This document shows, in pieces, positions 7,054 to 57,799 of a stretch of DNA of 64,000 nt. The stretch is from positions 1-64,000 of the forward strand of contig CAUYUJ010000006.1 of NCBI GenBank assembly GCA_963575745.1, written 5' to 3'. The notes under the pieces are model-generated. The model was not told where the DNA came from. It did not search any database and saw only the letters and a program-made list of their open reading frames with translations. The stretch is from Prorocentrum cordatum (Eukaryota). Numbering within the stretch: position 1 is the stretch's first letter; every line of letters starts with the position of its first letter. A program made the position numbers and the translations under genes.

Positions 7054-8476
7054 TTGGCCGACCCGGCCAGAACGGACAAAGTGATAACTTTTGGGTGGTT
7101 TTGCAATTTTTTCAAAGATATTTGACCATTTATTTTGAGAAAGCAGATTTTTACGCCGAGCATTGGAATATAAATTCCTCTCTGACCAAAGCTCAGCTCT
7201 CTCGATGCATTTTTGCACGAGCTGACTTCCGGGAACTGAGCGAATATGAACATCAAAAAAATCCAATTTGAAGATTTTCGAAAAATATTTATTTTTCCAC
7301 TCTGGGTCGATTCTCTTCACTCTTATCAGTGAAAAGAGCTCTACGAGGTTCCCGGCGGTGACTAGGTTGACGGTTCACCGCCGGCGCCAGTTGGCAAGAA
7401 AAATCTCGACGGACCTTTTGGTGACTTTTGGTCGGTTGATAATTTTGTTCTCGAAATTCAACAATTCGTTTGAGCTCTAGTATTTTTCTCTAGTATTTCT
7501 TTCCCATGATATTCGATTCTCATTCCCGCTCGCCATCTGATCCATCTCGGATCGGGTTAACTTTGAAGGCAAAAAGCAGGGGGGCAAAAGCAGGGGGACG
7601 GGAACGGCCGTTTGGCGGGAACGGCCGTTTCGAGTCATCTTGGTACGCGCTGTCGGTTTTCTCAAGATAACTCGAGCTTCAGGACACTACAGAGCTGGTC
7701 AGCACAGCTAATGCATTCAGAATGATCAGGCGCGTCCGCCTGTTGAATCCAGAGGTCTGAACTCGGTCTGCTAGCCGAGCTAGGGTCGCAAACCTATTCG
7801 TATTATTCGAGTCATTGTAGCAGACGCTCTCGGTTTTTTGTACTTAACTCGATCTATAGGGCAGCCACAGAGCTCATACTAACAGAAATCGATTGAGACT
7901 TATCAGGCGCGTTCGTCTGTTGCATCAAGAGCTCTGAAATCGGCCTTCTCTCCGAGCTAGGTTCGCGAAACCTATGGTAAATATAACTAATTTTTCGAGT
8001 ATCAATCTGGAGAAGTGCTCTTCGGTTCTTGCTGTAAACTGAATCGTCTGGGGGGGAGGGCCACAGTGGCTTGCTGGTCAAAGGAATCGATTTTCGAGAC
8101 ACCAGTGCGCGTCCGTTCGTTTCGGACCGAGAGCTCGGAACTCGGTCTGCTGCTCGAACGAGATTCCTGCGAAACTTGTTTGTATTTTATTTCGAGATCC
8201 CTAAAAGCTACCTCGGTTTCTGCAATTAACTCTCCCTTGGCTGTATGGGGGGCTGCAGAGCTGGTAATCACAGGAATCGATCCGCAGACATCAGACGCGT
8301 CCGCCTGTCGCATTCAGAGGTCTGAACTCGGTTTCATACTCGAGATCGATTGGAAAACTGTTCGTTTGTTTTGTTAGAGTCATCTTGAGAGGTCTATAAT
8401 CGCTTGGGCTGGAAAACTAGTCGTTCTCTGAAATTCTTTTCCACATTATATGTTGTCAGGAAGCTCTACGAGTCCC

Positions 8477-9712
8477 TCTGATAGGGCCTCTTCTTCTCGA
8501 GATGTTGAAGTTCCCTGTGAGCGGGGGGGGCCTAGGGATTCCCCCAGGCCCCCCCCGAAACGTCGGAGGGTGGCTGTTCCTGGACCTGGACAACAGACGG
8601 TGTATCCTCGTGCGCATCGTGACGCACGCCGGCTTCTGATGTGCTGTACCCCGAGGTGGGAGGAGAAAAGGACACTGGAGTCAAAATATTGGCGTTCACA
8701 GGGGAAGTGGAAGGAGGCCTCGAAACTGACACGATTAGGCAGTACTAAGGGGCAGGCGACGGGTGAACATCCTTGGTGTTTCATGTTCCAGACGATATTT
8801 CCCTCGTATGTGAATCTGGAGGATCGGTGGTGGAGGGCGTGCTCTTTCTCTTACTCTGACTTCGTTCAGTATTGCAGGCAGTTCCTGGAAGCTTGTACTT
8901 TGGGGTCTCTGTTTGACTTGTTTGTTGTCCGTGGAGGAACTGGAGGGAAAGGAGACTACATAAAGGAGAGGGGGGAGGAGATGTTGGCTCGTCCGTTGTC
9001 GGCGAAGGAGTCCGAGAAGCTGGCCCAGAGATTGGCCTCGAACAATGAACAGGAGCCGACTTGGGATCTGAGTGATGATGGGATCGGTCTCGAGCTGACG
9101 GGCGATTCGCTTCTTATCTTTAACTGGATCAATGGTCTCTGGAAGGTTGAGGGAGGAGAAGGAGGAGATGGGGCTTCTTATCGTAGGCGGGTGGCAAATA
9201 TTATTTCTCTTTTGGAAGAGTTGGAGGAGGACGGAATACGACCCCCCTCATGGGGCAACGACTTCATTCGACACATATATCGAGAGAGTAACACAGTAGC
9301 TGATGAACTTACCCACTTAGCACGGGAAGGCCAGATATTCAGAGAGCTGTTCCACCACCATATCTTTCGTTCTGATGTCCGAGACAACTTTCGAGTTATT
9401 GGCCTCCGCGGATCCTTCGACGGCGGAGTGTGCGCCCAAGGTGTGGGCGTTGGCTGGTTTCTGCAGATTGGATATATTCCTCGATTCCATGACCCTTACC
9501 CTGACCCTGAGCATAGAGATAAGAGAGCTCGTGTAGTCTCCCTCTTCCCCCAAGCCTCCTCTCCTTGTCCAATCATATGGGAAATAGTAGGGCGTTGTGC
9601 ACAGGCACTCCCCTCCCATAGCAGTATCACTGACGCTGAGCTTTCGGGTCTCGAGGGCCTCTTGCGGGCCGCAGCCCAGGTGGCCCAAGACCTCCAGCTG
9701 CAGAGAGACTAG
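8477..9712 (+). CDS. C-terminal fragment of a retrotransposon polyprotein with a circularly permuted RNase H-like domain
   Basis: Open frame with LELTGDSLLIFNW (9101), HIYRESNTVADELT (9272), GSFDGGV..GVGW (9416) and ITDAELSGL (9635). Collinear with the C-terminus of the 25466-27929 ORF. The listed start at 8450 lies in host sequence. Confidence 0.75.
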   Translation, partial: SDRASSSRDVEVPCERGGPRDSPRPPPKRRRVAVPGPGQQTVYPRAHRDARRLLMCCTPRWEEKRTLESKYWRSQGKWKEASKLTRLGSTKGQATGEHPWCFMFQTIFPSYVNLEDRWWRACSFSYSDFVQYCRQFLEACTLGSLFDLFVVRGGTGGKGDYIKERGEEMLARPLSAKESEKLAQRLASNNEQEPTWDLSDDGIGLELTGDSLLIFNWINGLWKVEGGEGGDGASYRRRVANIISLLEELEEDGIRPPSWGNDFIRHIYRESNTVADELTHLAREGQIFRELFHHHIFRSDVRDNFRVIGLRGSFDGGVCAQGVGVGWFLQIGYIPRFHDPYPDPEHRDKRARVVSLFPQASSPCPIIWEIVGRCAQALPSHSSITDAELSGLEGLLRAAAQVAQDLQLQRD

Positions 9713-9769
9713 GTAGGCACTTAACGGGCGCTGGGGCGCTCGGTGCCTGGTCAGCCTCCCCAAAAAAAA
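8477..9769 (+). mobile_element. 5'-truncated non-LTR retrotransposon inserted in the 3' hairpin of a family A element
   Basis: Interrupts GAGTCCC[CCGGCGGT]AACAAAGGTTGAC. Ends in a short stem-loop UTR and an A8 tract (9762-9769). The left hairpin arm is lost at the 5' junction, so there is no TSD. Confidence 0.8.
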
Positions 9770-9799
9770 CAAAGGTTGACGGCTACCGCCGGCGCCCAG

Positions 9800-22135: not shown

Positions 22136-23549
22136 TTCCCGGATAGCTCCTTGGAGAGCTGAGGGTTTCAGATAAGATGCCGGAGGAGGGTGGTGAGGGA
22201 GACACGCCCACCTCCGCCGGTCCACGATTCTCGCAGCAGGTTGCCGGAGCTTGCAGCGGGTCCGGGAGCGTGGCTTCCTAGCGTTTCCCAATGCGCGTGG
22301 CTCCAGGGTGCGCAAAGCGCTTCGGCAGAGCTTCGGAAGAGCTTCGGCAGTTTTTCCAGGCTCCTAGGCAGATCTTCCTTGTGCGCTTTGCAGTGCCCCA
22401 CGCATCGCAAATCGCAAACGGCGCCCCTGCAAGCGTCTCCTGCAAGGTTTCCAGCGTCCCGCGCATCGTTTCAAGCGGCACGGCAGAGGTCCCCGTGCGG
22501 CGTTTTGGAGGGCTTCGCGCTCCGCGCCTGGCTTCGCTATCCGGGTTTTTCCCGGATAGCTCCTTGGAGAGCTGAGGGTTTCAGATAAGAAGCCGAAGGT
22601 GGGTGGAGGGAGACACGCCCACCTCCGCCGGTCCACGATTCTTGCAGCAGGTACCTCGTAGAGCTCTTCGGCATCGATGAGCTAGAGGAATTCCGGCGCG
22701 GGGTGGAGCTAGTTGGTCGACCCGGCCGAGGCGGACAAAGTGATAACTTTTTCCCGGATAGCTCCTTGGAGAGCTGAGGGTTTCAGATAAGAAGCCGGCT
22801 GTGGGTGGTGAGGAGCACACGCCCACCTCCGCCGGTCCACGCTCGTCGCAGCAGCTTGCCGGAGCTTGCAGCGGGTCCGTGAGCGTGGCTTCCTAGCGTT
22901 TCCCAATACGCGTGGCTCAAGGGTGCGCGAAGCGCTTCGGCAGAGCTTCGGAAGAGCTTCGGCAGTTCTTCCAGGCTCCTAGGCAGATCTTCCTTGCGCG
23001 CTTTGCAGGGCCCCACGCATCGTAAACGACGCCCCTGCAAGCGTCTCCTGCGAGGTTTCCAGCGTCCCGCGCATCGTTTCAGGCGGCCTGGCAGAGGTCC
23101 CCGTGCGGCCTTCCGCGCTTGGCTTCGCTATTCCCGGATAGCTCTGTGAGAGCAGAGGGTTTCAGAGAAGAAGCCGGCGGTGGGTGGTGAGGAGGACACG
23201 CCCACCGGTCCACGATCGTCGCAGCAGCTTGCCGGAACCGGCAGCGGGTCCGGGAGCGTGGCTTCCTAGGGTTTCCCAATACGCGTGGCTCCAGGGTGCG
23301 CGAAGCGCTTCGGCAGAGCTTCGGAAGAGCTTCGGCAGTTCTTCCAGGCTCCTAGGCAGATCTTCCTTGCGCGCTTTGCAGGGCCCCACGCATCGTAAAC
23401 GGCGCCCCTGCAAGCGTCTCCTGCGAGGTTTCCAGCGTCCCGCGCATCGTTTCAAGCAGCCTGGCAAAGGTCCCCGTGCGGCGTTCCGCGCTTGGCTTCG
23501 CTATCCGGGTTTCGGACGCTTACAAAACCGAGTTTTGGACGCTTGCAAG
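22136..23549 (+). mobile_element. Family C elements (about 400 bp, GC-rich), nested in B and in one another
   Basis: 5' TTCCCGGATAGC at about 22136, 22549, 22752 and 23131. Inverted subterminal GCTATCCGGG at 22536 and 23500. 3' tail GGACGCTTACAA. Confidence 0.75.
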
Positions 23550-24894: not shown

Positions 24895-25143
24895 TTTGAA
24901 AGACATTCGATTATTTATTTTAAGAATGCAGATTTTTACGCCGAGCATTGGCACATAAACTCTTCTCTGACAGCAGGTCAGTTCTCTCGATGCAATTTTG
25001 CATCAGTTGACTTCCGGGAACTGCGCGAATATGAGCGTCAAAAAATCGAATTTGAAGATTTTCGAAAAATCACTCGTACCAGTGAGAGGAGCTCTACGAG
25101 GTTCCCGGCGGTGACCGGGTTGACGGTTCACCGCCGGCGCCAG

Positions 25144-25465
25144 TTGCCGGAGCTTGCAGCGGGTCCGGGGGCGTGGCTTCCTAGCGTTTCCCAATACGCG
25201 TGGCTCCAGGGTGCGCAAAGCGCTTCGGCAGAGCTTCGGAAGAGCTTCGGCAGTTCTTCCAGGCTCCTAGACAGATCTTCCTTGTGCGCTCTGCAGGGCC
25301 CACGCATCGTAAACGGCGCCCCTGCAAGCGTCTCCTGCGAGGTTTCCAGCGTCCCGCGCATCGTTTTAAGCGGCACGGCAGAGGTCCCCGTGCGGCGTTT
25401 TGGAGCGCTTCGCGCTCCGCGCCTGGCTTCGCTATCCGGGTTTTGGACGCTTACAATGGACGCTT
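25144..25465 (+). mobile_element. 3' part of the family C element split at 22651/25144
   Basis: GCAGCAGG (ending 22651) plus TTGCCGGAGC (25144) restores the C sequence seen at 22234-22250. Confidence 0.8.
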
Positions 25466-27929
25466 TCAGGAACTCAGACACAACGACCGTGGGGTGGAGG
25501 GAAGAGTCATCACGATGGGCATGCTCATGCAGGCTCGTGCGTCTTTGAAGCCTGGCACGGCACCCGGCAGCGATGGAGTCGTTGCGGAGGTCATTCGTGA
25601 GTTGCCGTGGAGGAGCCTCTTGTTTGTGCGGCGTGCTTTCCAGAGGATTTTCGAGCAGGGAGCCTCCAGCCCTGAGACGTGGAGGCAGCTCAGTATCCAA
25701 CTTGTGCCGAAGATGCGGGATGCTACACGACTCTCCAACACCAGAGGGATTTGCCTGATCAGTGTGATGAGTAAATGGTACATGGCATGTGTGTTGCAGT
25801 TTATTGATGTATTTCCTGTGAACCGACGGTTGTGCACATACGGATTTGAAAAGGATCAGAAGGTTACTAACGTCACGGCACCACTATCACATCTTACTAG
25901 ACATGCAAATGTGTGGGGGAAGGCGGAGTCTATGCACGTGGGAGTCTTGGACATACACAAAGCTTTCGATAATGTCACACTGCACACTATCATCAAGGCC
26001 ATGCTGTACCTTAAGTACCCTGTGTGCCTCATCAGAGCCATTGTGGAGCCCATGCTGGATAACATTGCTACCTTTGAGTTTCAGAACGTGTGCGGCGATG
26101 AGGTGAGATACAACAAATCGGTCCGAACGGGAGGTAAGGAGGGACCCATACTTTTCAATATTGTCTTGGAGGCCATCTGGGGATCTGTGATTCAGACTTG
26201 GGATACCTTAGGATACGGTGTCCGACTGGAAGGGGAGGGGACGGACGGTGCTCTTGTACACCACTTCTTGTGGGCGGACAATGTTGCGCTCTGTGCTGCA
26301 TCGCAGCTCCAGCTACAACAGATGATCGGTATGATGACGGTAACACTCAGACGGGCAGGGATGGACTGGAAGGAGGACTCTTTGGCGTATGTACTTTTTG
26401 GCCAGACGTACACAGGTGGCGATCCGCCGCTGCTCTGCCCGCTCTCGCCAGCCATCTGTGCGATTTCTGGAGATGAGGATCTCCCAGAGCACTTGCGCTC
26501 GACTGTCGTTATGCCGAGGAAGGAGGAGGTGGAGGTACTAGGAGTGAAGCTCAGCTCGGAAATCAAGGGATATCACGGCTTGTATCATCGACTGGAGAAA
26601 GGGAGGAAGGCCTATTTTGCCGACATCCAGTTTTATCGCTCCAGATCGGTCTCACTCAAAGAGAAGTTTCGCAGGTATGCCGCTCGTGTGCAGTCTGTGG
26701 TGTACCACGGATGTATAGGCTGGCCGTGCAATCTACGACTGCTGGAGAGGATTAAGGTCTGGGAGGGGAGGTGTCTCAACGGTATGCGAGGACTACACAA
26801 GAGGGAGGAGGAGACGTGGGAGGAGTTCAGGGACAGGACCACACCGAAGTCATACGAGCTATTCTTGCAGGCTGGCCAATGCAGTCTGCTAGAGAAGGTG
26901 GTCAGAGCCAATTTCGAGTTTGCGTTGGAGCTGGCCCAGTTTCATGATCGGGCCTTCGCCTCCACGGACTTGCGTGGGGCACGAGCCTGGCGTCAGACGC
27001 TGCAGGCCATGTTACACTGTGCGGGGGAATGGTCACTACGGAGGGACACACTTGTATCCATGTTCACGGGAGCCAGGAGGAGGGAAGGTACGAGGAGAGT
27101 GGGAGGGAGAGCGCATGCAAGCACTAACAGCTGGCATTGTCTTATGCTGGCGGCGAGTGGTAATTTACGCTGGTTCAGCATCAAGTGGAATGCGACGGAC
27201 TGGTGGAATGTAGTTGCGTGCATGACAAAAACACAGCCTCGATGGGAGCCCATCTTCAGGAAACCGCCCTGTGCTCCTTGCCCTGTGGATACGTGGGACT
27301 CCCCTGAGGACTCCGACAGGCTCGCTCGTAGGATTGCCCACGGATATAACAACGAAGCTGTCTGGCAGGAGGGCTCGGAGAGCTCATTGTTGGTTGAAAT
27401 GACTGGTGATAGTATGTGTGTGGTGAACTGGGCCCGAGGGATCTGGGAATGCCGTGATCGTTCGTACCGCAGGAGAGTGCACGGTCTACAAAACGATATG
27501 AATCAACTGGCGGAGGATTACGACATCAGGTGTGCCACTGTAGGGACGGATCCGTGGAAGCATATCTACAGAGAGTTCAATTGTGTTGCGGATGAGTTGA
27601 CTTGGGAGGCGAGGAGGGGAAGGACGGGAAGATGGATTGACTTCAGATATTTACGACAACAGAGACATTGTATCAAACGTATCCGTGGAGGATGGGACGG
27701 TGGCGTGAGTGTTGAAGGCTCTGCTCTAGGTTGCTATGTGGAGGTCTCATTTGGGGACAACCACTGGCGACGAGTTTTCCAGGAGGCTTCTTTACTCCCT
27801 CTGGGGGCCACTGTTACAGATAGCGAGCTCACAGCTTGTGAACGCCTGCTCCAAGGTGTTCGGCAGATTATCTCTGAGATCCTCGGGCCTCCAACCCCAA
27901 AGAGGTTGAGAGGGCGTGAGGGACCCTAG
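25464..27929 (+). CDS. Non-LTR reverse transcriptase plus circularly permuted RNase H-like domain (about 820 codons, N-terminus missing)
   Basis: RT motifs LKPGTAPGSDG, RGICLIS, YGF, LDIHKAFDNV, SVRTGGKEGPILF, LWADN (26271) and VLG. RNase H motifs GDS (27405), HIYREFNCVAD (27561), WDGG (27693) and SEL (27822). The first 88 aa of the listed 25200 ORF come from the host element. Confidence 0.9.
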   Translation, partial: FQELRHNDRGVEGRVITMGMLMQARASLKPGTAPGSDGVVAEVIRELPWRSLLFVRRAFQRIFEQGASSPETWRQLSIQLVPKMRDATRLSNTRGICLISVMSKWYMACVLQFIDVFPVNRRLCTYGFEKDQKVTNVTAPLSHLTRHANVWGKAESMHVGVLDIHKAFDNVTLHTIIKAMLYLKYPVCLIRAIVEPMLDNIATFEFQNVCGDEVRYNKSVRTGGKEGPILFNIVLEAIWGSVIQTWDTLGYGVRLEGEGTDGALVHHFLWADNVALCAASQLQLQQMIGMMTVTLRRAGMDWKEDSLAYVLFGQTYTGGDPPLLCPLSPAICAISGDEDLPEHLRSTVVMPRKEEVEVLGVKLSSEIKGYHGLYHRLEKGRKAYFADIQFYRSRSVSLKEKFRRYAARVQSVVYHGCIGWPCNLRLLERIKVWEGRCLNGMRGLHKREEETWEEFRDRTTPKSYELFLQAGQCSLLEKVVRANFEFALELAQFHDRAFASTDLRGARAWRQTLQAMLHCAGEWSLRRDTLVSMFTGARRREGTRRVGGRAHASTNSWHCLMLAASGNLRWFSIKWNATDWWNVVACMTKTQPRWEPIFRKPPCAPCPVDTWDSPEDSDRLARRIAHGYNNEAVWQEGSESSLLVEMTGDSMCVVNWARGIWECRDRSYRRRVHGLQNDMNQLAEDYDIRCATVGTDPWKHIYREFNCVADELTWEARRGRTGRWIDFRYLRQQRHCIKRIRGGWDGGVSVEGSALGCYVEVSFGDNHWRRVFQEASLLPLGATVTDSELTACERLLQGVRQIISEILGPPTPKRLRGREGP

Positions 27930-27982
27930 GGACTCTGCACGGCTAGGGCGCACGCGCCCTGTGTAGCCGACCCCAACACCCA
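25466..27982 (+). mobile_element. 5'-truncated non-LTR retrotransposon with 13-bp TSD, inserted in a family C 3' tail
   Basis: ACAATGGACGCTT at 25453-25465 and 27983-27995. 3' UTR stem-loop followed by a CCCCAACACCCA tail. Confidence 0.9.
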
Positions 27983-28121
27983 ACAATGGACGCTTACAAG
28001 TTGGGTCGGTTGGACGAACTTCGTGAGAGATTTGACCATTCGTTTTGAGATTTGGTATTTTTTGCACCTAAAGTGGATTATTTCGCGTTCGCCAGTGAAT
28101 TCTGAGGTCTATAGGTGCAGT

Positions 28122-31100
28122 ATTCCCGGATAGCTTCTTGGAGAGCTGAGGGTTTCAGATAAGAAGCCGGCGGTGGGTGGTGAGGAGCACACGCCCACCT
28201 CCGCCGGTCCACGATTCTCGCAGCGCCCTGCCGGAACCGGCAGCGGGTCCGGGAACGTGGCTTCCTAGCGTTTCCCAATACGCATGGCTCCAGGGTGCGC
28301 GAAGCGCTTCGGCAGAGCTTCGCAACCCTCGAGAGCTAGTTGGCAAGAAAAATCTCGACGCACCTTTTTCTGACGTTTGGTCAGTTGAAAAGTTTGTTCT
28401 CGAAATTCAACAATCCGTTTGAGCTCTAGTATTTTTTCCCGTCATATTTTACCTTATTCCCGCTCGTCATCTTGATCTCAGCTCGATCGGGTAATTTTTA
28501 CTGCCAAAAAGCGCCCCGGCGGGAGCGGCCGTTTCGAGTTATCTTGATACGCGTTGTCGGTATTCTGTAAGTAACTCGAGCTATAGGGCAGCTGCAGAGC
28601 TGGTAAGCACACCTATCGCATTCTGAATCCAGAGGTCTGAACTCGGTCTTAGCCGAGCTAGGTCCGCAAATCTATTCGTATTATTCGAGTCATCTTGACA
28701 GACGCTCTCGGTTTTCTGTTCTTAACTCGAGCTGTAGGGCAGCTACAGGGCTCATCCTCGCAGACATCGATGGGTAATCATCAGTCGCGTTCTATTGAAC
28801 CGAGAGCTCTGAACTCGACCTGCTGCCCGAGCTAGGTTCGCGAAACTATTCGTATTGTCCGAATGATCTTCAGAAACTTAACTCGGGCTGTAGGGGGGCT
28901 GCAGGGCTTGGAATCACATTAGTGGATTCGCAGACATCAGACGCGCCCGCCTGTCGCATTCAGAGGTCTGAACTCGGTTTGATACTCGAACTGGGTTGTG
29001 AAACTGATTGTTTTTTGTTAGCGTTCGCTTGGGCTGAAAAACTAGTCATTCTTTGGAGTTTTTTCCATACTATATATTGTCAGGAAGCCCTACGAGTCCC
29101 CCGGCGGTAAGACAGGAGACGGTTTACCGCCGGTGCCCAGTTGGCAAGAACTGAACTTTTGACAACTTTTGCTCGGTTAAAACTTTTGCTCTCGGAATTT
29201 GACGATTTGTTTGAGCTCTAGTATTTTTTCCCGTGATTTCCGATCTTATTTCCGCTCGCCATCTTGATCTCAGCTCGATCGGGTGAATATTACTATCGAA
29301 ACGCGTCATGGCGGGATCGGCTGTTTTGAGTCATTTGATACGTGCTGACGGTTTTCTGAACATCACTAGCTTTAGGACAGCTACAGAGCTCGTAAGCCCA
29401 GCTAATCGATGTAGAATGATTAGGCGCGTTCGGCCGTTCAATCGAGAGGTCTGAATTCGGTCTGTCAGCCGAGCTAGGTCTCGAAACCTGTTCGTATTAT
29501 TCGAGACATCTTGATAGGATCTCTCGGTTTTCTACACTTAACTCGAGCTGTAGGACAGCTACAGAGCTGATATTCACAGAAACCGATTCATAATCCCGAG
29601 TTGCGTTTTTCTGTCGAATCCAGAGCTCTGAACTCGGTCTGCTGCCTGGTCGAGTGATCTTGAGAAGTGCTCTCGATTTTCTTCACCCAACTCGCGCTGA
29701 GGGAGCTACAGTGCTGGTAATCACAGGGATCGATTTGAAGACATCAGGCGCGTCCGCCTGTTGAATCCAGAGCTCGGAACTCGGTCTGCTGCCCAAATTA
29801 GATCTGCAAAACTTCTATATTGTTCGAGTCGTTCTCAGAAGTGCTGTCGGTCTTTCTGCACCTAACTCGGGCCTGTAGGGGGGCTGCAGGGCTGGTAATG
29901 ACAGAAGTCGATTCGCAGACATCAGACGCGTCCGACTGTCGCATTCAGAGGTCAACAAATATTCACTATAAGTCGGAATGTTGGATGCTGTCGGTTTTCT
30001 CAACTCAAGTCGAGGTAGGAAGTTCTACGAGTTCTAACCAAGGTTGACGGTTTACCGCCGGCGCCCAGTAATCCCGGAGCGCCGGAGAGCTAGTTGGCAA
30101 GAAAAATCTCGACGAACCTTTTGGTGACTTTTGGTCAGATGAAATTTTTGTTCTCGGAATTCAACAAATCGTTCAAGCTCTAGTATTTTTTCCCATGATA
30201 TTTGATCTTATTCCCGCTCGCCATCTTAATCTCAGCTCGATCGGGTACCTTTTACTGCCAAAAAACACTCCGGCGGGATCGACCGTTTCGAGTCATCTTG
30301 ATTCGCGCTGTCGGTTTTCTCAAGATAACTCGAGCTTGAGGACAGCTACACAGCTGGTAAGCACAGCTAATCGATTCAGAATAATCAGACGCATTCGCCT
30401 GTTGAAACCAGAGGTCTGGTCCGCAAACCTATTCGTATTATTCGAGTCATCTTGAGAGAAGCTCTCGATTTTCTGTACTTAACTCGAGCTACAGGACAGC
30501 TACAGATCTCATACGTACAGAATCTGGGTCAGAATTATCAGTGGCCGTTGTCTGTTGAATCCAGAGCTCTGAGCTCGGTCTGCTGCCCGATCTAGAATCG
30601 CGAAACTATTCGTATTGTTCGAGTCATCTTGAGAGATGCTGTCGGTTCTCTGCACTTAACTCGGACTGTAGGGTGGCTACATGGCTGGACATCCCTGTAA
30701 TCGATTCCGAGACATCAGACGCTTTCGTTTTTCGAATCGAGAGCTCTGAACTCTGTCTGCTGCCCGAATTAGGTCGGCGAAACTATTCGTATTGTTCGAG
30801 ATATCTTGAGAGATGCTGTCGGTTTTCTGCATTTAACTCGGGCTAGGGGGGCTGCATGGCTGGTCATCACTGGAATCGATTCGGAGACATCAGGCGCGTC
30901 CGCTTTTCGAATCAAGAGCTCGGAACTCGGTCGGCTGCCCGAACTAGCTCGTCGAAACTTTTCGTATTGTTGGAGTCATCTGAGAGGTGATGTCGGTTTC
31001 TTGCACTTAACTCGGGCTGTAGGGGACGGCAGGGCTGGAAATCACAGGAATCGATTCAGAGACATCAGACGCGTCCGTCTGTCGCATGCAGAGATCTGAA

Positions 31101-37619: not shown

Positions 37620-39830
37620 AGGAACCCGACTCCCGTGGGGTTGTCGTGGAGCGCCCGAGCGGCACCGCCTCCACGGTGCTGCAGGCAGAGTGGGACCCCT
37701 GAAGCAATGCCCACCGCCTCGCGGAAGCACGTCACTTCTCGCCGTAGCGCAGGGCCATGTAGATCTGCCTGTGATGCTCGCAAATGCAGTCTGTCGCACT
37801 CCCTTCACTGGGAAGCGGAAGGTCCGAAGCCCGGCCATCCTCCACCAACGGCACGGTCGGATCGCCGCGCGCGGCGTCTCGACAGCCCTCGGACCCTAGT
37901 GGGCGCATCTTGCCCTTGATCATGAGCCCCACCTTCACCGCCTCGCAGGGGTTGTCCTCGGCGTCTACCTCGGACTCGGACTCCTGGTCAAGCAACCTTG
38001 CCACCGACCCCTGCACGCCCGGCTCCGCATCGCCAGTCCTGTGACGGCGGCGTCGCCGGCGGCAGAGGCACGCCCCGCAACGCGAGAGCCACGAGAGGAT
38101 GTACAGCGGCAGCTTGTAGGCGAGGCCCAACCACCTTCAGAGACAGACGAAAATCGGACAGGGCGTGAACCTCGAATAGTCGCCGAGATCCACGATGTCT
38201 TCGTTGTCAAGAGCGGCGTACTCCTGCAGTGCAGCTCGTTCTCGCGCCCCTTGCACCCGGTACAGCTGGTGGAACGGCACAGGTGAAGCCAGCGCGGATC
38301 TCGCTGCTCCAGCTCGCGCCTAAAGCCCTTTTCGCTCGCACCCTTCACAGAGTCATACTGAACCCACAATCCTTGGCGATTGATGCGCTCCGGGGACTTC
38401 ATGTTAAGCTTGAGCCGCGCGACCCGGTAGTCGACCCTAATGATGAGGTCATTCTGGCCGCGCTTGGAGCCCCTGTCCTCCTTGATGCTCTTGCGGTACC
38501 AGTCGGTCGTCGGATCGCCTGCAGCTGGGCCGTGCCGCACCACGTCGGTGAGGGGCGGTGCCGCCGACGGGGCCAGCTTATCAAGCTTAGCCTCGCCAGG
38601 CGTCTTGCGCCTCGGGCAAGGGGCAGCACGCCAGCACCAGGCCGCATGTCCAGGCTGCCCAGCTGCAGGGTGCGAAGAGTGTCCTCAGGCTGTGGGCCAG
38701 GAGTGCGACCGGGCCAGTGCCGGAGAGGATCGCCACGAGCCCGGCGATCAGCGGCCACGCGGAGCCGAACAGGTAGAGGCCCACCTGGTCGGCCATGTAC
38801 AGCACCCAGCCGCCATCGGAGCTCAGCCAACCTCCTGCCTCGCGAGTCGAGAAGGCTGACCTGGAACTCACCGCAGCCCGAATGGCACCTCCCCCCATCC
38901 CCTCGGCGAACCAATGCGTGCGGTTACCGATGTCCTTCCAGCGGATGCCGAAGAGACCCCAACCCCTGATCCGGGACGTCGGGTCCGAGTCGGGGGGGTC
39001 GGGGCAGTGCGGGTTGGACCTTGGGGAGGTGGGTCGGCCGGCGGCCCGGAGCGCTCGCGCGGCGGACCTCCTCCGGCACCTCCTGCGGGAGCTGCGTGCT
39101 CGCCTGCTGGGTGCGCTCCGATCGGCGGCGTGTCCACGGAGGTGGGGGCAAGGTGCCGTCGAGCCAGAACGCCCGCGTGTCCACGTCCTCGTCGTAGTAC
39201 GCGGACTCGGCGTCGTGATCGGCGTCGGCGGCCTTGGCCGCCACCACGAGGGTCAGCAGCAGGGCTGCCGCGCGCCCGCAGCGCCAGCCGGCTGGCGGCG
39301 GCGCCGGGGCCTTGGGGCAGCGCCTCCAGGTGGGCCCCGGCGCGCGCGCGCGCTCTGCCGCCCTTGCCTGGCACCGAGCCGGCGCCGGCGCGGGCTCGCG
39401 CGTGGCCGCTGGCTCGGCGGGGGGGGTCGGCGGCCTCGCCTCGGCGGATGCCGCCTCGCCTCCGGGTGCTCCGCGGCTGGCGTGAGCCGGCGCCGCTCGG
39501 CGCCCGGGCCCCCCGCCGCTGCGCAGCTGCGCGCCCGCGGGCGGCGTCGCCGCCGCCCCCCAGCCGCGCGGCGCCAGGCGCGGCATCATGCGGCCGCGGG
39601 CGCCCCTGCCAGCCCTGGACCCAGGACCTGGAGGTCTCCTGGCCCCTCCCGGGGCCCGGCCTCAGGCCAACTGAGGCCGTCCCCCAGCTTGGCCTTGAAA
39701 AGGCTTGAGCCGCCAAGCGGCGGTGAATAGAGAGGGAGAGAGAAAGGGCAAGCGAGAGGCAAGGGCAGGAGCAAGGGAACCGCAAGTGGAAGCCCGCGCC
39801 AGTTCTGGGAGCGGGGAGATCCATCAGTTT
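37620..39830 (-). pseudogene. GC-rich degenerate coding-like segment, probably a retroelement ORF1/gag-like remnant
   Basis: Frameshifted protein-like pieces on the minus strand: hydrophobic segment DQVGLYLFGSAWPLIAGLVAIL and Cys/His cluster WLHLCRSTSCTGC..ELHC. No catalytic motif recognised. Confidence 0.3.
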
Positions 39831-39844
39831 TACCAAACATCCTA

Positions 39845-42800
39845 AATACTTCAGAATGGCGCTCCTGATGATTTCCTTCCGGTTGCTGTGCCGAGGCGAA
39901 GAGCTCTTTAGCTCATATATGGCTCGAGTTAAGTTAAGAAAACCAGCACCTCTTCAAACATTAGCAGAGTATGAGTAGTTGTTCTGTCTCAGCTCTGGTA
40001 GCAGACCGATCTCAGCCATGTAGATGCTTCAGATTTAGCGCGCACTATGATTTCCGTCCGGTTACTGTGCCGAACAGCTGTAGGTCATCCACCGCTCGCG
40101 TTAAGTCAATAAAACCGACAGCACCTGCCAAGATAACACTTAGCGCCCGATCCCACCCACATGCTTTTTAATAGTAATATTCACCCGATCGACCTGAGAT
40201 TGAGATGTCGAGCGGAAATAAGATCGAATATGGGCAGAAAAACATTAGAAGTCTAACCAATGACTTGTAGAGCGCCCCTAAAAGCGAAGCGGCGAAGCTG
40301 GAAAGCGAAGCGGCGAAGCGGCAAAAGCTTGACGGAGGTTTGGTTTATTTTCATCAGTTTTTGAAACTCAGCAATTCGCTAGAGCTCTAATTTTTTCTAG
40401 CCATCTTCGGTCATTCTGGCTTTCCATCTTGATCTCAGGTCGATCTGGTAGATATTACTATAAAAGCACTCAGGCGGGATTGGCTGTTGAGTGTAATCCT
40501 GGCAGGTGCTGTCGGTTTTTCTCACTTAGCTGGAGCTGCAGATGAGCTGCAGAGCTCTTCGGCACAGCAATCGAAAGGGCATCATCAGGAACGTTATTTT
40601 TCATTATCTAGATGTCCGAATTCGGTCTGCTACCAGAGCTGGGGCCAATGACTCTTTGCGCACTCTGCTAATTTCTCGAAGAGATGATGATGATTGCCTA
40701 ACCCAACTCGAGCTGCAGATGAGCTACAGTGCTGCCCGGCACAGAAACCGCAAGATAATCCTTAGGAGCGCTAGTCTCACGTATCTAGATGCCCGAACTC
40801 GGTCTGCTGCCAGAGCTGGTCCTGCTAATTATTTCAGAGAAAATGCTAATTCTCTTAGCTTGAATCGAGCTGCGAATGAGCTACATAGCTGTTCGGCTCA
40901 GCAATGGGAAGAAAGTCATCAGGGGCGCTAGTATCAAGTATCCAGATGCCTGAACTCGGTCTGCTTTTAGAGCTGGAACCAAAAACTATTCGCTCTCTGC
41001 TTATTGTTGTAAAAGATCATCATCGTTTTCTTTTTTTTTATTCGGGCTCTTACTCCTCCACGCACTCTTCTCTTTCACGTCCTCTTCCATATAACCGCAC
41101 CTCGTGTGCACGAAATTCGAGACTGCTCTCGCATGCGATTCATGTATACCGCAAGAAAGCTGTGCGAGTTCCGGGCGGTAACCAAGGTTGATGGCGGTGC
41201 TTGACATTCTACTCAAGTGGTGCTCAACGGTTGATGGAACAACGCTTGCAGAGCCACATTCGGAACCTTTGTGTAACCTTTTGGCCTTAACTGTGGCCTT
41301 AACTGGCGCCTGGCGCTGTTCAAGACTTCAACTTTAACTTTCACTCTGCTTCGCCTGTGATATACAACGTAAACATGAACTAGTCGGCCTCCACGGTTTC
41401 TTCGTTGGATGGCGGTCTGTGGAAGCATATGCTGCTGATCGGCTGTTGCTTTGATCAATGCAGTAAAACGGCATTGTATGGCCGTGGAACACGTTTTGGG
41501 TAGCGTTTCAACCAGCTCTTACACCATTCTCTAACCTGTTCCAACACCTTTGCATTCTCACATGTTGTGTTGCATCCTTTTCCTTGTACCTGCATCCTAT
41601 TCCGATGCCTATGCCTCAGTGGCTCGGCAGTGTAATCATAAGAGGTGCCTTCTCTAGCTACCCTGTGCTCCGTTTGGGAGTCTTAGGGCTCAGCTGTCAC
41701 AGCTGTCCGCGCCCTGACTCAAACTCAAAAACCAAGGTTGACGGTTTACCGCCGGCTCCCAGTTGTTGTATTTCGAGAAATTGATTTTTTACCGACCGAA
41801 ATGATGCAAAACATCCGTCGGGATTTTTCGGTCCAACTAGCCCGCCAGCGCGCCAGAACTGGACAACGGCGGTAAACCGTCAACCTTGGTTACGGCCGGG
41901 AACTCGTTGAGCTTCCTTGCGATGCGAATGAATGGTATGCAAACGCGGCAATCTTGCATTCCGCTCGCGTGAGGGTGCAGTTTTATAGAAATGTGTTTCG
42001 CAGCTCCTTGCTTGTCCAGAGCTCGAGTTCGTCTCGATGCTGCAGACTAGCGCTGGTGATCATTCCCATTCGAACAGTCTGCTACCGAGCGCTGTAGCTT
42101 CCCTACAGCTCGAATGAAGTAGAGGAAACCGACACTGCATATCTAGAGTTTGAACAGCGCAAATAGTTTTTGAGTTGCAGTTCTGGTAGCAGACCGATCC
42201 GCCGTCTAAATGCTTGCAACTAGCGCTTTTTCAGCATTTCCTGTCGAGTGGTGTATACCTGAGCTCCGTGTCTAGCCTACAGCTCGAATCGAACACAGAA
42301 AACACATAATCTCTCGCCAAACAATTGCAGAGTGCAAGTAGCTGTTCAGTTGTAGCTTGGTAGCAGACCAATTCCAGACGTCTCGATACTGTAGGCGACT
42401 GTTTCTGATGATGTCCTGTTAAGCGGTGTGCTTCCCAGCTCCCTACCTTGCCTATAACTCGAACTGAATCAGAAGTATTACGCCGTCTCCAAACAAATGA
42501 AAGGTTGCAAAACATATTTGATTGAAGTTCCGGTGGCAGACCGATCTCAGGCGTCTAGATACTTTGCGCAGGTGCTTCTTGGCATTCTCTGTCGATTAGG
42601 TTGCATCTCAGCTTCGTGGCTGGCCTACATCTCGAATTCAATTGGGGCACATCATCTCTCGTAACATCTTTCCAGTGCGAACAGTTTTTCACTTGCAGCT
42701 GCGATTGCAGGCCGAATTCAGACGTCTCGATACCCCAGGCGAGTGTGCTTGATGATTTTCTGTTTCGACAAGTGCTTCTCAGCTCCATAGCCAGCCTACA

Positions 42801-45667: not shown

Positions 45668-46485
45668 AACCTGGTTGACGGTTGAGGTCGCGTCCAAACG
45701 ACCCTTCGAGAGAGTTGTTAGTTCGGTAGTTCGGACACGAACTGAATCCAGTATTGGGGCGCAGCCCAGAACTCTGGACTGAACAAATCTTCCGTGCGTT
45801 GTTAGTTCGAGATTTCGGGGCCGAACCCACATGCCTCGTGGAGCTCTTCCGCATCGATGAGCCAGAGGAATTCCGGCGCGGGGTGGAGCTAGTTGGCCCA
45901 CCCGGCCTGGGCGGACAATTTGTCAATCTGGGGTCGGTTTACCTCGTGGAGCTTTTCGGCGTCGATGAGTTAGAGGAATTCCGGCGCCGGGACGCGAGTA
46001 GCTCGTAGAGCTCTTCGGCATCGATGAGCTAGAGGAACTCTGGCGCAGGGTGGAGCTAGTTGGCCCACCCGGCTCGGACGGACAATGTGGGAACCTTGGA
46101 TTGTTTTTTTTTCGGGAGATCGTGAGAGATTTGACAATTCTTTTTGTGGGCCCCGATTTTATTCCCTATACGCGATCATGGCACGTTTCGTGGTAAATTC
46201 TTAGGGCTGTAGCTTCAGTGCAGCTCTCGACAATTCGGGGGGACCATCGGCCGTCATAATGTTTTTTGTAGATGATAGTTATTTCGTGAACATAACTGAA
46301 GAAGTTACCGCCGGGACCATCGTAGAGTTCTCAACGCGCAATACGTGTTCATTTTATGAGAAGTTCCTCGAAACTCAGCTTAATAACTCGCTTTTTTTCC
46401 CAACCATCCTGTGGTGTTGGGTCCTCGTTTTGAAGAAACGGTCCCCGCGTTCCTTCTTCCTCCTTCTCCTCGCCCTCCTCCCTCC

Positions 46486-48160
46486 TGCGTTCGCATGCCT
46501 CCCCACCACCCATTTCCGCACACCCCTCACACGTTTCGTGGCCCCATAGGCGGCTCCACCGAAGGCCCCAGTGGCTGCGTTCGCATGCCTCCCCACCACC
46601 CATTTCGGCACACCCCTCACACGTTTCGTGGCCCCATAGGGAGCTCCACCGAAGGCCCCAGTGGCTGCGTTCGCCCCACCACCCATTTCGGCACACCCCT
46701 CACACGTTTCGTGGCCCCATAGGGAGCTCCACCGAAGGCCCCAGTGGCTGCGTTCGCATGCCTCCCCACCCCATTTCGGCACACCCCTCACACGTTTCGT
46801 GGCCCCATAGGGAGCTCCACCGAAGGCCCCAGTGGCTGCGTTCGCATGCCTCCCCACCACCCATTTCGGCACACCCCTCACACGTTTCGTGGCCCCATAG
46901 GGAGCTCCACCGAAGGCCCCAGTGGCTGCGTTCGCATGCCTCCCCACCACCCTCGGCACACCCCTCACACGTTTCGTGGCCCCATAGGGAGCTCCACCGA
47001 AGGCCCCAGTGGCTGCGTTCGCATGCCTCCCCCACCCATTTCGGCACACCCCTCACACGTTTCGTGGCCCCATAGGGAGCTCCACCGAAGGCCCCAGTGG
47101 CTGCGTTCGCATGCCTCCCCACCACCCATTTCGGCACACCCCTCACACGTTTCGTGGCCCCATAGGGAGCTCCACCGAAGGCCCCAGTGGCTGCGTTCGC
47201 ATGCCTCCCCACCACCCATTTCGGCACACCCCTCACACGTTTCGTGGCCCCATAGGGAGCTCCACCGAAGGCCCCAGTGGCTGCGTTCGCATGCCTCCCC
47301 ACCACCCATTTCGGCACACCCCTCACACGTTTCGTGGCCCCATAGGGAGCTCCACCGAAGGCCCCAGTGGCTGCGTTCGCATGCCTCCCCACCACCCATT
47401 TCGGCACACCCCTCACACGTTTCGTGGCCCCATAGGGAGCTCCACCGAAGGCCCCAGTGGCTGCGTTCGCATGCCTCCCCACCACCCATTTCGGCACACC
47501 CCTCACACGTTTCGTGGCCCCATAGGGAGCTCCACCGAAGGCCCCAGTGGCTGCGTTCGCATGCCTCCCCACCACCCATTTCGGCACACCCCTCACACGT
47601 TTCGTGGCCCCATAGGGAGCTCCACCGAAGGCCCCAGTGGCTGCGTTCGCATGCCTCCCCACCACCCATTTCGGCACACCCCTCACACGTTTCGTGGCCC
47701 CATAGGGAGCTCCACCGAAGGCCCCAGTGGCTGCGTTCGCATGCCTCCCCACCACCCATTTCGGCACACCCCTCACACGTTTCGTGGCACATGGAGCTCC
47801 ACCGAAGGCCCCAGTGGCAGGGTTCGTATGCCTGGGCGTTTTGTGGCCCCATAGGGAGCTCCACCGAAGGCCCCAGTGGCAGGGTTCGCATGCCTCCCCA
47901 CCACCCATTTCGGCACACCCCTCACACGTTTCGTGGCCCCATAGGGAGCTCCACCGAAGGCCCCAGTGGCTGCGTTCGCATGCCTCCCCACCACCCATTT
48001 CGGCACACCCCTCACACGTTTCGTGGCCCCATAGGGAGCTCCACCGAAGGCCCCAGTGGCAGGGTTCGCATGCCTCCCCATCACCCATTTCGGCACTCCC
48101 CAACACCCATTTCGGCACACCCCTCACACGTTTCGTGGCCCCATAGGGATCTCCACAGAA
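46486..48160. repeat. 90-bp tandem repeat array, about 18 units
   Basis: Unit CATAGGGAGCTCCACCGAAGGCCCCAGTGGCTGCGTTCGCATGCCTCCCCACCACCCATTTCGGCACACCCCTCACACGTTTCGTGGCCC recurs at 47071, 47161, 47251 ... 47701. Confidence 0.97.
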
Positions 48161-48339
48161 GGTCGGGGGGAGCTTGGCACTGGTATCCTTGCGGTACTCG
48201 CAGCTGCATATGGTTGGGTCCTTCGCCAGGTTATTTTTTTTGGGCGGGGGGTTATACGAAATCGGTTCCCCTGACGGTTTACCGCCGGCTTCCAGTCGCA
48301 CAAAGCCCAAAACATACTTGTTGCAAGTTTCTAAGCTGA

Positions 48340-48910
48340 GTACCTCGTAGAGCTCTTCCGCATCGATGAGCTAGATGAATTCCGGCGCGGGGTGGAGCTA
48401 GTTGGCTTATCCGGCCCGGGCGGACAATGTGTGAGGTTTGGGTCGGTAGGGCGATCATGGTGAGAGATTTGACTACTCGTGTCGGGAACCAGTATTTTTC
48501 GCACCTGTGGTGGGTTATGCCGCGTCTGCCTGTGAAATTCTCAGGTCCGTAGCTGCAGCATTACTATCAAATCACTTGTCTGGACCGTCGGCCGTCGGGA
48601 TGCATTTTTCCAGATGATCATGACTTCGTGAACTGAACTCACGCAGCAAGCAAGCTACACAACTCTGATTCGCACTTTTCGGATTCAGCAGGTTATGCCG
48701 CGTCTGCCTGTGAAATCCTCAGGTCCGTAGCTGCAGTATCACTATCAAATTACTGGCAGAACCGTCGCCGTCGGGATGCAATTTTCAGAATAAAAATTGT
48801 TTCGTCAACTGGGAGCCGGCGGTAAACCGTCAACCTTGGTTACCGCCGGGAACTCGTAGAACTTCCTTACGATATACATGAATTGCATGCGGGCGCGGCA
48901 ATCTCGCGTT
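48340..48910. mobile_element. B-like element (+) interrupted by a reverse A-like 3' end (48808-48867)
   Basis: TACCTCGTAGAGCTC at 48340; ACTGGGAGCCGGCGGTAAACCGTCAACCTTGGTTACCGCCGGGAACTCGTAG at 48808. Confidence 0.7.
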
Positions 48911-55242: not shown

Positions 55243-56886
55243 ACTAGCCGGGTGCGCTCGGGTCATATCTGACGTCTTACCCCTTCCTCCCATCCCTTAC
55301 AATTGCGCAGAGCCCCTCTCTACTCGCACGGGCTGATGTCGAAGAGGGAAACATCCCTCAAGGGTACGCGATGCGCAAGATGGTGTAGCCTTGCGTAGTC
55401 GAGCAGTTCATAGCATAGCATTGCATCGCAAGGCATGACATCGCATAGTGGTGTCTAACACAACATAGCATGGTATGCCACTGCATGGCATGACACTTCG
55501 TAACCCAGCGTTGAATATCACAGTTGCAGAGCAACGGCGTGCCATCTCATACGAGCGGCACATGACATATCATTGCATTGCATACCATTGCTGCGTGGAA
55601 AGGTGCAGCCAGAAACCATGGTGGAGGACTAACAATGTGGAGATGAGGTCTGTGTAGACTGGAATGGCCGAAATTGCGCAAACGAGGCCATCGCAGCAGC
55701 GGGAGCACCATTCGGAAGGACCGATTTCGCAGAAGCAAGACCATCGCAGCGGGAGTACCAGTCGGAAGGACCGAAACTATGGCAGTGAGACCAGCGCCGC
55801 AGCCGGAACACGATCTTGAAGGATCAGAGCCCCACACATGAGGCCACCGCTTCGACGGGAACATCATTCTGAATGGCCGAAAGCGATCGGATGGGAACAA
55901 CTGTTTAGTCTGTGCATCTTCGACTAGGTTAGGGGAGAGCTGGGAGCATCGTGCTCGCCAGCTTGGTCTCGCAGCCTTGGGAGGCCCCAGCGCGGTGCTT
56001 CGGTGGGCCCGCGCGGGCCTGAAGCGCGCGCCCCCGGCAGGGCGCGCGATGTGGGCCGGCCACGGTATCCTATGGCTGTGCGCCGGCCTGGCTGGCCGAA
56101 CCGCGGTGTGGCCTCCCGTGCTCCGGGAGGGTGGCCGAGCCTGGGGACTCCGCGACTTCCTCGGGGTCGCCCCTGGCCCCCCTGCCCGAAGCCACGTTTC
56201 TGGGAGGCGCGGCCCGGGCCCCAGCGGGGGGGGGTGGGTGGGTGGGCCGGCAGAGGGGCAGGGCCGTGTCTGTGGACCCCCTGCGTCCCCGAGCGCCAGC
56301 GGCAGGGGGCGGGGTGCGCGGCGAGCAGCCCCGCCCACCAAGCTGGCCCGAGCTCCGTGGGGCGCCTGGGGCGGGGCCGAGCCTGGCCGCCCGCCCTCTT
56401 AGCCGGCGGCGGGAGAGGCGCGGGTCCGGCCTGCGTCGCCGCTGCCCCCCACCTTGACCATTGACTCTGGGGCCGATGACGGCCGGGCCACACGGTGGGG
56501 CGCCTGGGCTCCGGAGTGGGCTGTCGGACGGGCCATGGGGAGAGCTTCGGCCCAAACGCCGACGGGACCGCCGTGCCCAAAGGTGCGCCCCACCACCCGG
56601 CAGAGGGGGCGCTGGAGCTACGTGCGCTGGGCCTGGCACTTGCATGGGCACCTGGGTTCCGGGGACGGTTCAGTGCACCGAGTCGTAGCTGTGCGCTCTC
56701 CACCGACGGGGGGATGGTTCGGGGAGACGGTCCACAAGCTGTCGTTCTCAGTTTCCAATTGGGCGCCCCTGGTGGAGCACCACGATGTGCTGCATCACGA
56801 TGGCCATCATCACCTTCCTGTACGCTACCCTGGCCTACTGCGTCAACACGGTGCCGGTTCCTCTCGCGTGGTGCGGGAGATCGGAG

Positions 56887-57043
56887 GGCACCAACTATAC
56901 ACCAACACCGATCCTGGCCCAGGATCACCCTGGGCCCAGGATCGGTGTATATACCTTCTTGCGCAAGGCAGGAGGGCGTATACACCGATCCTGGGCCCAG
57001 GGTGATCCTGGGCCAGGATCGGTGTTGGTGTATAGTTGGTGCC
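56887..57043. repeat. Perfect inverted repeat with 65-bp arms and 27-bp spacer (MITE/foldback-like)
   Basis: 56887-56951 is the reverse complement of 56979-57043. Confidence 0.9.
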
Positions 57044-57206
57044 TTTCTAGGAGAGGCCTCCGCTGGATCTGGGGCCAGCCTGCGCGGTGCTGCTGGCGGG
57101 CGCCCCCAGGCCCCGCCGCGCGCTCTCCCCCGCCTCCGCCTCCGCTTCGCGTTCGCTGGCGAGGGCCCGGCGTGGACGGGGATAAGGATGCGAACTGCCA
57201 CCAGAG

Positions 57207-57244
57207 GTGTGTATGTATGTGTATGTATGTGTATCTGTGTATCT

Positions 57245-57291
<47 letters not shown>

Positions 57292-57309
57292 GGTGCGTGC
57301 GTGCGTTCG

Positions 57310-57346
<37 letters not shown>

Positions 57347-57381
57347 GCGTGGTGTGTGTATATGTATGTGTCTGTGCGTGC
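57207..57381. repeat. (TG)n/(TGCG)n/(TGTA)n microsatellite
   Basis: Seen directly in the sequence. Confidence 0.95.
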
Positions 57382-57799
57382 AGAAGATCATGCACGTGGC
57401 CCAGGTGAAATGTGACTCCACCAGCTGTTGGCGCCCTGGACCAGCATGGGCTCAACGTCCGGGTGAGCGAGGTGCTCACTTGCACCTGTCGCCAGCGGTG
57501 TCAAAACCTGGTCGCCTTGCGCCTGCGCCCGCCCGGTGCGCGTGGATCAGTGCGCCGCGATCGACCGCTCGCAGATCGTCCATCTAGCGGAGCATGCCCA
57601 GAGTTTTTTACATGTATTGTTCGGGTCGGCTGGTGCAACACCCATGGGGGGGCTCTGGTGGACCCTGCATCGGCGGGCTGCTCGCCTGATGCTGCCGATC
57701 GAGGACGGAGCGCTTTATCAGCGAGACGGCGGGTCCGCGCACGCTGGCCCCCGAGCTTGAAAGCGAGCCGTAGGACGAGGATCGTCCCTGCTTCGCCGG

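Follow-up and report, generated by a model that had tools for sequence, protein, structure and literature searches.

Can a retrotransposon carry a type 1 RNase H whose two halves have exchanged places along the chain? The question is raised by a 64,000-nucleotide stretch of Prorocentrum cordatum DNA (GenBank assembly GCA_963575745.1, contig CAUYUJ010000006.1, positions 1 to 64,000), analyzed at full length and referred to here as the window. Within it, a 5′-truncated long interspersed nuclear element (LINE), i.e., a retrotransposon without long terminal repeats (non-LTR), underlies a plus-strand open reading frame (ORF; 25185..27929) that is open stop to stop over 914 codons. The type 1 RNase H motifs in the last ~200 amino acids (aa) of this ORF follow the order D70 / H124-N130-D134 / D10 / E48 (Escherichia coli numbering). 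An earlier, sequence-only reading of this DNA had proposed a permuted RNase H fused to a non-LTR reverse transcriptase (RT), with the catalytic acids ordered D70, D134, D10, and E48 under named motifs, all four intact, in an open frame that stops soon after the E48 helix. Each motif was recovered at its place, the frame is open, no acid is missing, and the stop follows the helix by 14 residues; the fusion is borne out by an RVT_1 domain upstream in the same ORF and by the same arrangement in full-length relatives. We regard the domain as most probably a natural circular permutant of an RVT_3-style type 1 RNase H, fixed in a LINE lineage. Its halves are homologous to the two halves of the parent fold, occur once each and in reversed order, and make up one confidently predicted domain.

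Predicted fold and homology of the two halves

An AlphaFold2 (AF2) model of window positions 27126-27926, computed from a 127-sequence family alignment, had a mean predicted local distance difference test score (pLDDT) of 85.0 and a predicted template modeling score (pTM) of 0.78. Means of pLDDT over ten-residue blocks were 91-99 across residues 61-250 and low across residues 1-50. From its N terminus, the modeled chain comprises a helix (60-75), a strand ending at GDS (88-94), and helices 97-104 and 112-132; two short strands (134-136 and 144-146), a helix with the AD motif (153-163), and a short strand and helix (168-178); and, finally, three long strands (185-195, with DGG; 198-208; 214-223) followed by the helix that bears E881 (230-253). 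As modeled, this is the full RNase H element set in permuted order, and the window model contains no hidden N-half upstream of the domain. The same element order was obtained in an independent AF2 model of the relative P0063 (pLDDT, 90.5; pTM, 0.84), which is only 26% identical to the window copy. The canonical RNase H order (strands 1-3, helix A, strand 4, helices B/D, strand 5, helix E) was seen neither in the AF2 models nor in any of the 109 family sequences in which both halves were detected.

On this model, the chain would run through strand 4, helix B, helix D, strand 5, and helix E into a linker of ~21 residues, and from there through strands 1-3 and helix A to the stop. The linker would join the canonical N and C termini, and the new termini would lie in the former helix A-strand 4 loop, so that the RT would connect into strand 4, not into strand 1. 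A linker between the old termini had also been part of the sequence-only reading, where it was given ~25 aa; the joining stands, the length does not, and model residues 164-184 make it ~21. The two halves would pack into a normal five-stranded sheet, in which D742, D803, D838, and E881 would form one two-metal site.

Structural comparison pointed to RNase H half by half. The nearest clusters in the ESM Atlas were RVT_3/RNase_H, with scores of 0.88-0.90, and VIA-align matched each half separately and weakly. For the window model, the VIA-align rows were 3u3g_D (3.8, 78, 22%; model 79-167, 27-139), 3aly_B (3.7, 75, 17%; model 79-168, 26-137), and 4e19_A (3.6, 66, 17%; model 183-253, 67-174); for the P0063 model they were 3u3g_D (3.8, 84, 26%; 28-122, 24-140), 4e19_A (3.7, 76, 32%; 29-120, 91-199), and 3aly_B (3.4, 79, 25%; 30-124, 25-141). 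VIA-align listed no full-domain RNase H match for either model, and none was expected, since it is a sequential aligner.

Profile evidence also assigns the halves to RVT_3. When the 127 relatives were scanned singly, 42 matched RVT_3 at an E value of ≤0.01, and no other family was matched by more than one member. The relative P0099 passes the curated RVT_3 cut-off (28.4 versus 21.6 bits): its residues 488-544 correspond to profile positions 2-56, i.e., the N-half, and the 94-residue stretch just upstream corresponds to positions 63-123. Because profile 63-123 precedes 2-56, Pfam's own model reads this protein as C-half and then N-half. In P0123, likewise, a C-half at 139-229 is followed by an N-half at 246-304 (profile 2-52). 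Earlier, the motif style had been called archaeal or plant-retroelement-like; this agrees with Pfam matching RVT_3, not RNase_H, and with half-wise structural matches to the LC11, Sulfolobus, and Halobacterium RNases H1.

Aligned in native order to E. coli RNase HI with hhalign, the family alignment matched by its C-half only (template 61-144). With E. coli RNase HI alone as the template, the signal was too weak to discriminate a swap of the halves, whereas an 86-sequence template was informative. The latter combined E. coli RNase HI with those 85 of 120 listed homologs that are 150-165 aa long, all of the enterobacterial type (PF00075), and was of low diversity (effective number of sequences [Neff], 1.9; all at least 79% identical to E. 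coli). The swap-and-rescore check suggested by the sequence-only reading was run against it at the profile level and turned a half match into a full-length one. In native order, the score was 19.7 over 76 columns (template 63-147; E, 0.012; probability, 3.5%); with the N block moved before the C block, it rose to 32.1 over 128 columns (template 4-142; E, 6e-5; probability, 65%). The C block alone scored 19.4 over 72 columns (template 62-142; E, 0.0055; probability, 6.6%) and the N block alone 18.8 over 57 columns (template 3-61; E, 0.0058; probability, 6.4%); with two other cut points, the alignments were partial and collinear, which is what circular shifts should produce. The swapped alignment places FDGG on TDGS (D10), aEL on MEL (E48), GDS on TDS (D70), and rH..RE.N..AD on GH..PEN..CD (H124, N130, D134). 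Each half also keeps its register against RNase HI on its own, the C-half at D70, H124, N130, and D134 and the N-half block at D10 and E48.

Half order, conservation, and competing explanations

Relatives were collected with HMMER, using a profile of the two copies present in the window against 1.84 billion representative proteins (50% clustering), which yielded 240 proteins at an E value of ≤1e-3, 77 at ≤1e-10, and 13 at ≤1e-30. A word-indexed homolog search with ORF residues 640-914 found no match among 1922 candidates; the 240 relatives came from the exhaustive HMMER search. A PDB sequence search with the two-copy profile found no RNase H, its one match being an irrelevant methyltransferase (E, 0.18). 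The best 150 of the 240, together with the two window ORFs, made up the 152-sequence set on which half order and catalytic columns were scored. Separate hidden Markov models (HMMs) of the C-half and the N-half found the C-half followed by the N-half in 109 of the 152 sequences, that is, in every one in which both halves were detected. The others gave a C-half only (34), an N-half only (7), a split C-half (1), or no match (1), and many of the single-half sequences are fragments. Among 16 relatives checked that have a C-half match only, none carries a canonical full-length RVT_3.

The catalytic residues are conserved to a similar extent in both halves. In the HMM alignment of the 152 sequences, the D70 equivalent is D in 110 of the 116 sequences that cover it, the D134 equivalent is D in 135/138, the D10 equivalent is D in 123/124, and the E48 equivalent is E in all 93; the N130 and H124 equivalents are N in 137/138 and H in 119/137, respectively. 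Such near-total and equal conservation of the four acids speaks for a functional two-metal site. The role presumed for canonical LINE RNase H domains is degradation of the RNA template. By analogy, the permuted domain would remove the RNA template of the RNA:DNA hybrid once the first strand has been made in target-primed reverse transcription, since it sits after the RT in the polyprotein as a canonical LINE RNase H does.

Several results weigh against this interpretation. Foldseek, run with the model against the PDB, returned no RNase H and nothing at an E value of ≤1e-3; its top rows were unrelated, with TM scores of ≤0.27 on the query. In Pfam, the window copy matches RVT_3 with its first half only (profile 63/64-119 of 123) and below threshold, at 12.3-15.5 bits versus the cut-off of 21.6 (E, 0.17 for the 259-aa tail and 0.016 for the half alone), and its N-half alone has no Pfam match. 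The swap test rests on a template with a Neff of 1.9, and the swapped probability is only 65%. Both window copies, moreover, are truncated elements.

The sub-threshold Pfam score of the window copy would also suit a permuted fold that is real and yet is not an RNase acting on RNA:DNA hybrids, serving instead either as a structural or tethering module or as an RNase H-like nuclease that acts on another substrate; entry of the RT at strand 4 could, in addition, change the geometry relative to the polymerase site. The retroviral RT connection domain is an inactive RNase H-like module of this sort. Such inactive modules usually lose the catalytic acids, however, whereas here 95-100% of members retain each of the four. 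The equivalents of H124 and N130, which are typical of RNase HI, are present as well, and the closest matches by profile and by fold are true type 1 RNases H. We therefore consider a noncatalytic or differently directed module improbable.

Permutations classically arise by duplication and subsequent loss at the two ends, and the observed order might accordingly be an accident of decay, in which two tandem RNase H domains have lost the first N-half and been cut after the second helix A. The conserved helix before strand 4 (model residues 60-75) could, speculatively, be a relic of the earlier helix A. As a description of the present state, this is very unlikely. An N-C-N, C-N-C, or N-C order, or any third half, occurs in none of the 152 sequences; the region upstream of the helix (~55 residues) is modeled with low confidence and is not conserved; and P0063 lacks the helix and is predicted to have the same fold. 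The finding of two complete tandem domains in homologs, which the sequence-only reading had named as what would overturn it, did not materialize. The ORFs of diverged members stop at the same place, after the E48 helix: 27 matches cover more than 180 profile positions, 24 of them run to the profile end, and the residues left after the match number ≤16 in 20 of these 24 and ≤62 in all of them. The acids of both halves are, furthermore, equally conserved. A single end point, equal conservation, and the absence of extra halves fit one working domain, i.e., the circular permutant, for which duplication and later trimming are a plausible origin.

That short motifs and the marginal Pfam E values of the window copy alone (0.016-0.17) reflect chance resemblance, or an assembly or frameshift artifact, is a negligible prospect given the family-wide conservation, P0099 above the Pfam cut-off, the register-exact profile alignment, two confident AF2 models, and near-identical DNA in runs from five studies, one possibly the source sample.

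The helix that precedes strand 4 has the sequence pattern S/T-E-K-L-A-K-R-L/I-A (S.E..LA.R.A) and is found at 27303-27350, at 8999-9040, and in relatives P0003-P0010. It is confidently modeled in the window copy and present in part of the family. Speculatively, it might be what remains of an ancestral helix A, or it might simply connect to the RT.

The LINE copies and their surroundings

The element behind the long ORF is a 5′-truncated LINE insertion with its remaining frame intact (Table 1), as judged from satellite that stops and resumes at 12-bp flanking repeats and from a start that matches ~aa 500 of the 1455-aa relative P0004 in a by-eye alignment. The insert measures 2.5 kb and shows the hallmarks of non-LTR insertion, namely, a putative target-site duplication, 5′ truncation, and no LTRs; its frame is open for ~823 codons from the insert start to the stop. 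The putative target-site duplication, GGACGCTTACAA, has three exact copies in the window, the third of which, at 23514, lies inside an uninterrupted satellite unit. A near-duplicate of the target repeat marks the 5′ junction, where ACAATGGACGCTT occurs at both ends (25453-25470 versus 27984-27999), and the exact breakpoint is therefore ambiguous; microhomology during 5′ joining of the truncated cDNA may account for it.

The second copy belongs to a different subfamily and is more deeply truncated. Its motifs, LELTGDS, HIYRESNTVADEL, SFDGG, and TDAELS, follow the same permuted order with all four acids present, and its stop (9710-9712) falls eight codons past the aligned region, before an A-rich 3′ end. 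Both window copies are carriers of the permuted domain, not autonomous elements, and the putative endonuclease part of full-length relatives is absent from both.

Table 1. Coordinates of the LINE copies in the window and of the parts of their predicted permuted RNase H domains
Feature	Position	Strand	Remarks
Whole confidently folded C-terminal domain (upstream helix plus predicted permuted RNase H)	27291..27890	+	Model residues 56-255; AF2 pLDDT >90, pTM 0.78
RNase H C-half, placed first (predicted strand 4, helices B and D, strand 5, helix E)	27378..27626	+	RVT_3 profile 64-119; hhalign RNase HI 61-147; VIA-align 3u3g, 3aly
Putative linker joining old C and N termini	27627..27671	+	Modeled short strand (168-171) and short helix (173-178)
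RNase H N-half, placed last (predicted strands 1-3, WDGG; helix A, SEL)	27672..27890	+	hhalign RNase HI 3-61; VIA-align 4e19_A, model 183-253
GDSMCVVNW, D742 (D70 equivalent)	Codon 27408-27410	+	
HIYREFNCVADEL, H793, N799, D803 (D134 equivalent)	D codon 27591-27593	+	
GWDGG, D838 (D10 equivalent)	Codon 27696-27698	+	
VTDSELTAC, E881 (E48 equivalent)	Codon 27825-27827	+	
Stop codon	27927-27929	+	14 residues past end of predicted helix A
Reverse transcriptase domain, ORF aa 183-455	25731..26549	+	Pfam RVT_1, E 4.5e-13, 49.8 bits, cut-off 29.6
LINE (non-LTR retrotransposon) insertion, 5′-truncated	25457..27987	+	Satellite homology ends 25444/25456; 12-bp direct repeat at flanks
Putative target-site duplication GGACGCTTACAA, left copy	25445..25456	+	Near-repeat adjacent; junction ambiguous by a few bases
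Putative target-site duplication GGACGCTTACAA, right copy	27988..27999	+	Satellite resumes 3′ of repeat
Second LINE fragment, different subfamily, more deeply 5′-truncated	8477..9772	+	tblastn against ORF residues 706-899, 31% identity (72/234), E 7e-23; ORF 8432..9712
Predicted permuted RNase H of second copy	8999-9694	+	Catalytic codons D 9104-9106, D 9302-9304, D 9419-9421, E 9638-9640

In the full-length relatives P0004 (1455 aa), P0008 (1306 aa), and P0061 (1299 aa), an N-terminal region and an RT are followed by the permuted domain at the extreme C terminus. RVT_1 also scores above its cut-off in P0004, P0008, and P0029. At its N terminus, P0004 matches Exo_endo_phos weakly (E, 0.05; 13.8 bits, under the 24.5 cut-off), and PF03372 is annotated on a distant RT relative, P0301. 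The 90% cluster of P0004 holds five members of 1455 aa, and P0004 had no matches among PDB sequences. The RT itself is strongly diverged: a word-indexed search with the RT region found only five relatives at an E value of ≤1e-5, none of them named.

All relatives looked up came from environmental assemblies, and of the 36 members listed in the cluster look-up only one is named, as "hypothetical protein." DNA near-identical to the window element occurs in runs labeled marine, freshwater, estuary, or plankton metagenome and in some assigned to coded organisms; eight runs, from five studies, contained half or more of the sampled words. None of the runs listed with near-identical DNA is an RNA run, which has no bearing on expression.

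Both fragments sit inside complex satellite, which makes up most of window positions 1-37400; in it, a ~177-bp unit (70-93% matches) forms arrays that alternate with larger units and other repeated blocks. A GC-rich ~373-bp repeat flanks the LINE insert (22136-23545, 25143-25456, and 28121-28325), with two tandem copies at 93% matches and further partial copies. Read-through of this repeat accounts for ~90 spurious codons at the start of the stop-to-stop frame; the same DNA recurs at 22240-23525 and 28229-28325. Just 3′ of the insert, 28001-28124 is 76% identical over 125 bp to 48438-48562, and this shared stretch is probably satellite derived. The latter segment lies beside a 90-bp GC-rich tandem array (46485-48101; ~15 plus 3 copies, 96-97% matches), which produces long ORFs on both strands at 46700-48370 that are probably not genes. 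Elsewhere in the window, a degenerate (GAT)n-like trinucleotide tract spans 61393-62125 (245 copies, 71% matches), and in blocks 38000-40000 and 56000-60000 the G+C content is 0.69-0.75 (satellite part, ~0.48) and both strands carry numerous long ORFs that overlap. The dinoflagellate spliced-leader motif was looked for in the window and not found.

Relation to known RNases H and significance

The closest known systems are the RVT_3 and archaeal type 1 RNases H (PF13456), represented by LC11-RNase H1 (3u3g), Sulfolobus tokodaii RNase HI (3aly), and Halobacterium RNase H1 (4e19). With these the plankton LINE domain shares the DEDD acids, the H124 and N130 equivalents, the GDS and H.YRE.N..AD motif style, and, as modeled, five strands and four helices without the basic protrusion; its halves align to the matching halves by profile and, weakly, by structure. 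It differs from them in its swapped halves, ~21-residue linker, and termini between helix A and strand 4, and also in that most members of the LINE family fall under the Pfam cut-off and that Foldseek does not find the domain.

RNase H domains of non-LTR retrotransposons of the APE type have been described in canonical order. C-terminal RNase H domains are known in the APE-type I, Tad1, LOA, and ingi elements and, with an archaeal-like RNase H, in plant and oomycete L1; literature on such domains includes PMC5348765, PMC4408406, and PMC4640811. The plankton domain resembles these in its place after the RT at the polyprotein end, its RVT_3-like style, and its presumed removal of the RNA template; unlike them, it is permuted in every family member with both halves detected, and its RT is very diverged.

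Circular permutation within the RNase H-like class appears in an excerpt of the CIRPIN study, which applied a permutation-invariant search to AlphaFold DB clusters (PMC13552848, Fig. 5D). The two cases share permutation within this fold class; they differ in that the CIRPIN excerpt gives no protein, organism, or retroelement context and uses "RNase H-like" as a CATH-level label. The CIRPIN permutant may belong to the same family as the plankton LINE domain. Full-text literature searches turned up no description of a retroelement with a permuted RNase H, and the string "permut" is absent from the main text of a 2014 survey of the RNase H-like superfamily (PMC3985635). A further candidate report, PMC13524379, was set aside, as "permuted" there denotes label shuffling.

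With moderate confidence, we propose that this is the first recognized natural circular permutant of a catalytic type 1 RNase H, fixed and catalytically active in a widespread LINE lineage of plankton, that it arose when a tandem duplicate lost its outer halves, and that entry of the RT into strand 4 would change how the nuclease is oriented to the polymerase. Environmental assemblies contain the family in abundance (240 representatives at 50% clustering), and routine annotation largely misses it, as it is sub-threshold in Pfam, absent from Foldseek matches, and made up of proteins without names. Surveys of how retroelements gained and lost RNase H would thus be distorted, because they would count LINEs of this lineage among those without it. 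RNase H is among the best-studied folds for folding, catalysis, and retroelement evolution, and a natural permutant with all catalytic residues is a natural experiment on how chain connectivity relates to fold and function. For the LINEs themselves, the permuted domain would offer a new geometry for coupling RT and RNase H in target-primed reverse transcription.

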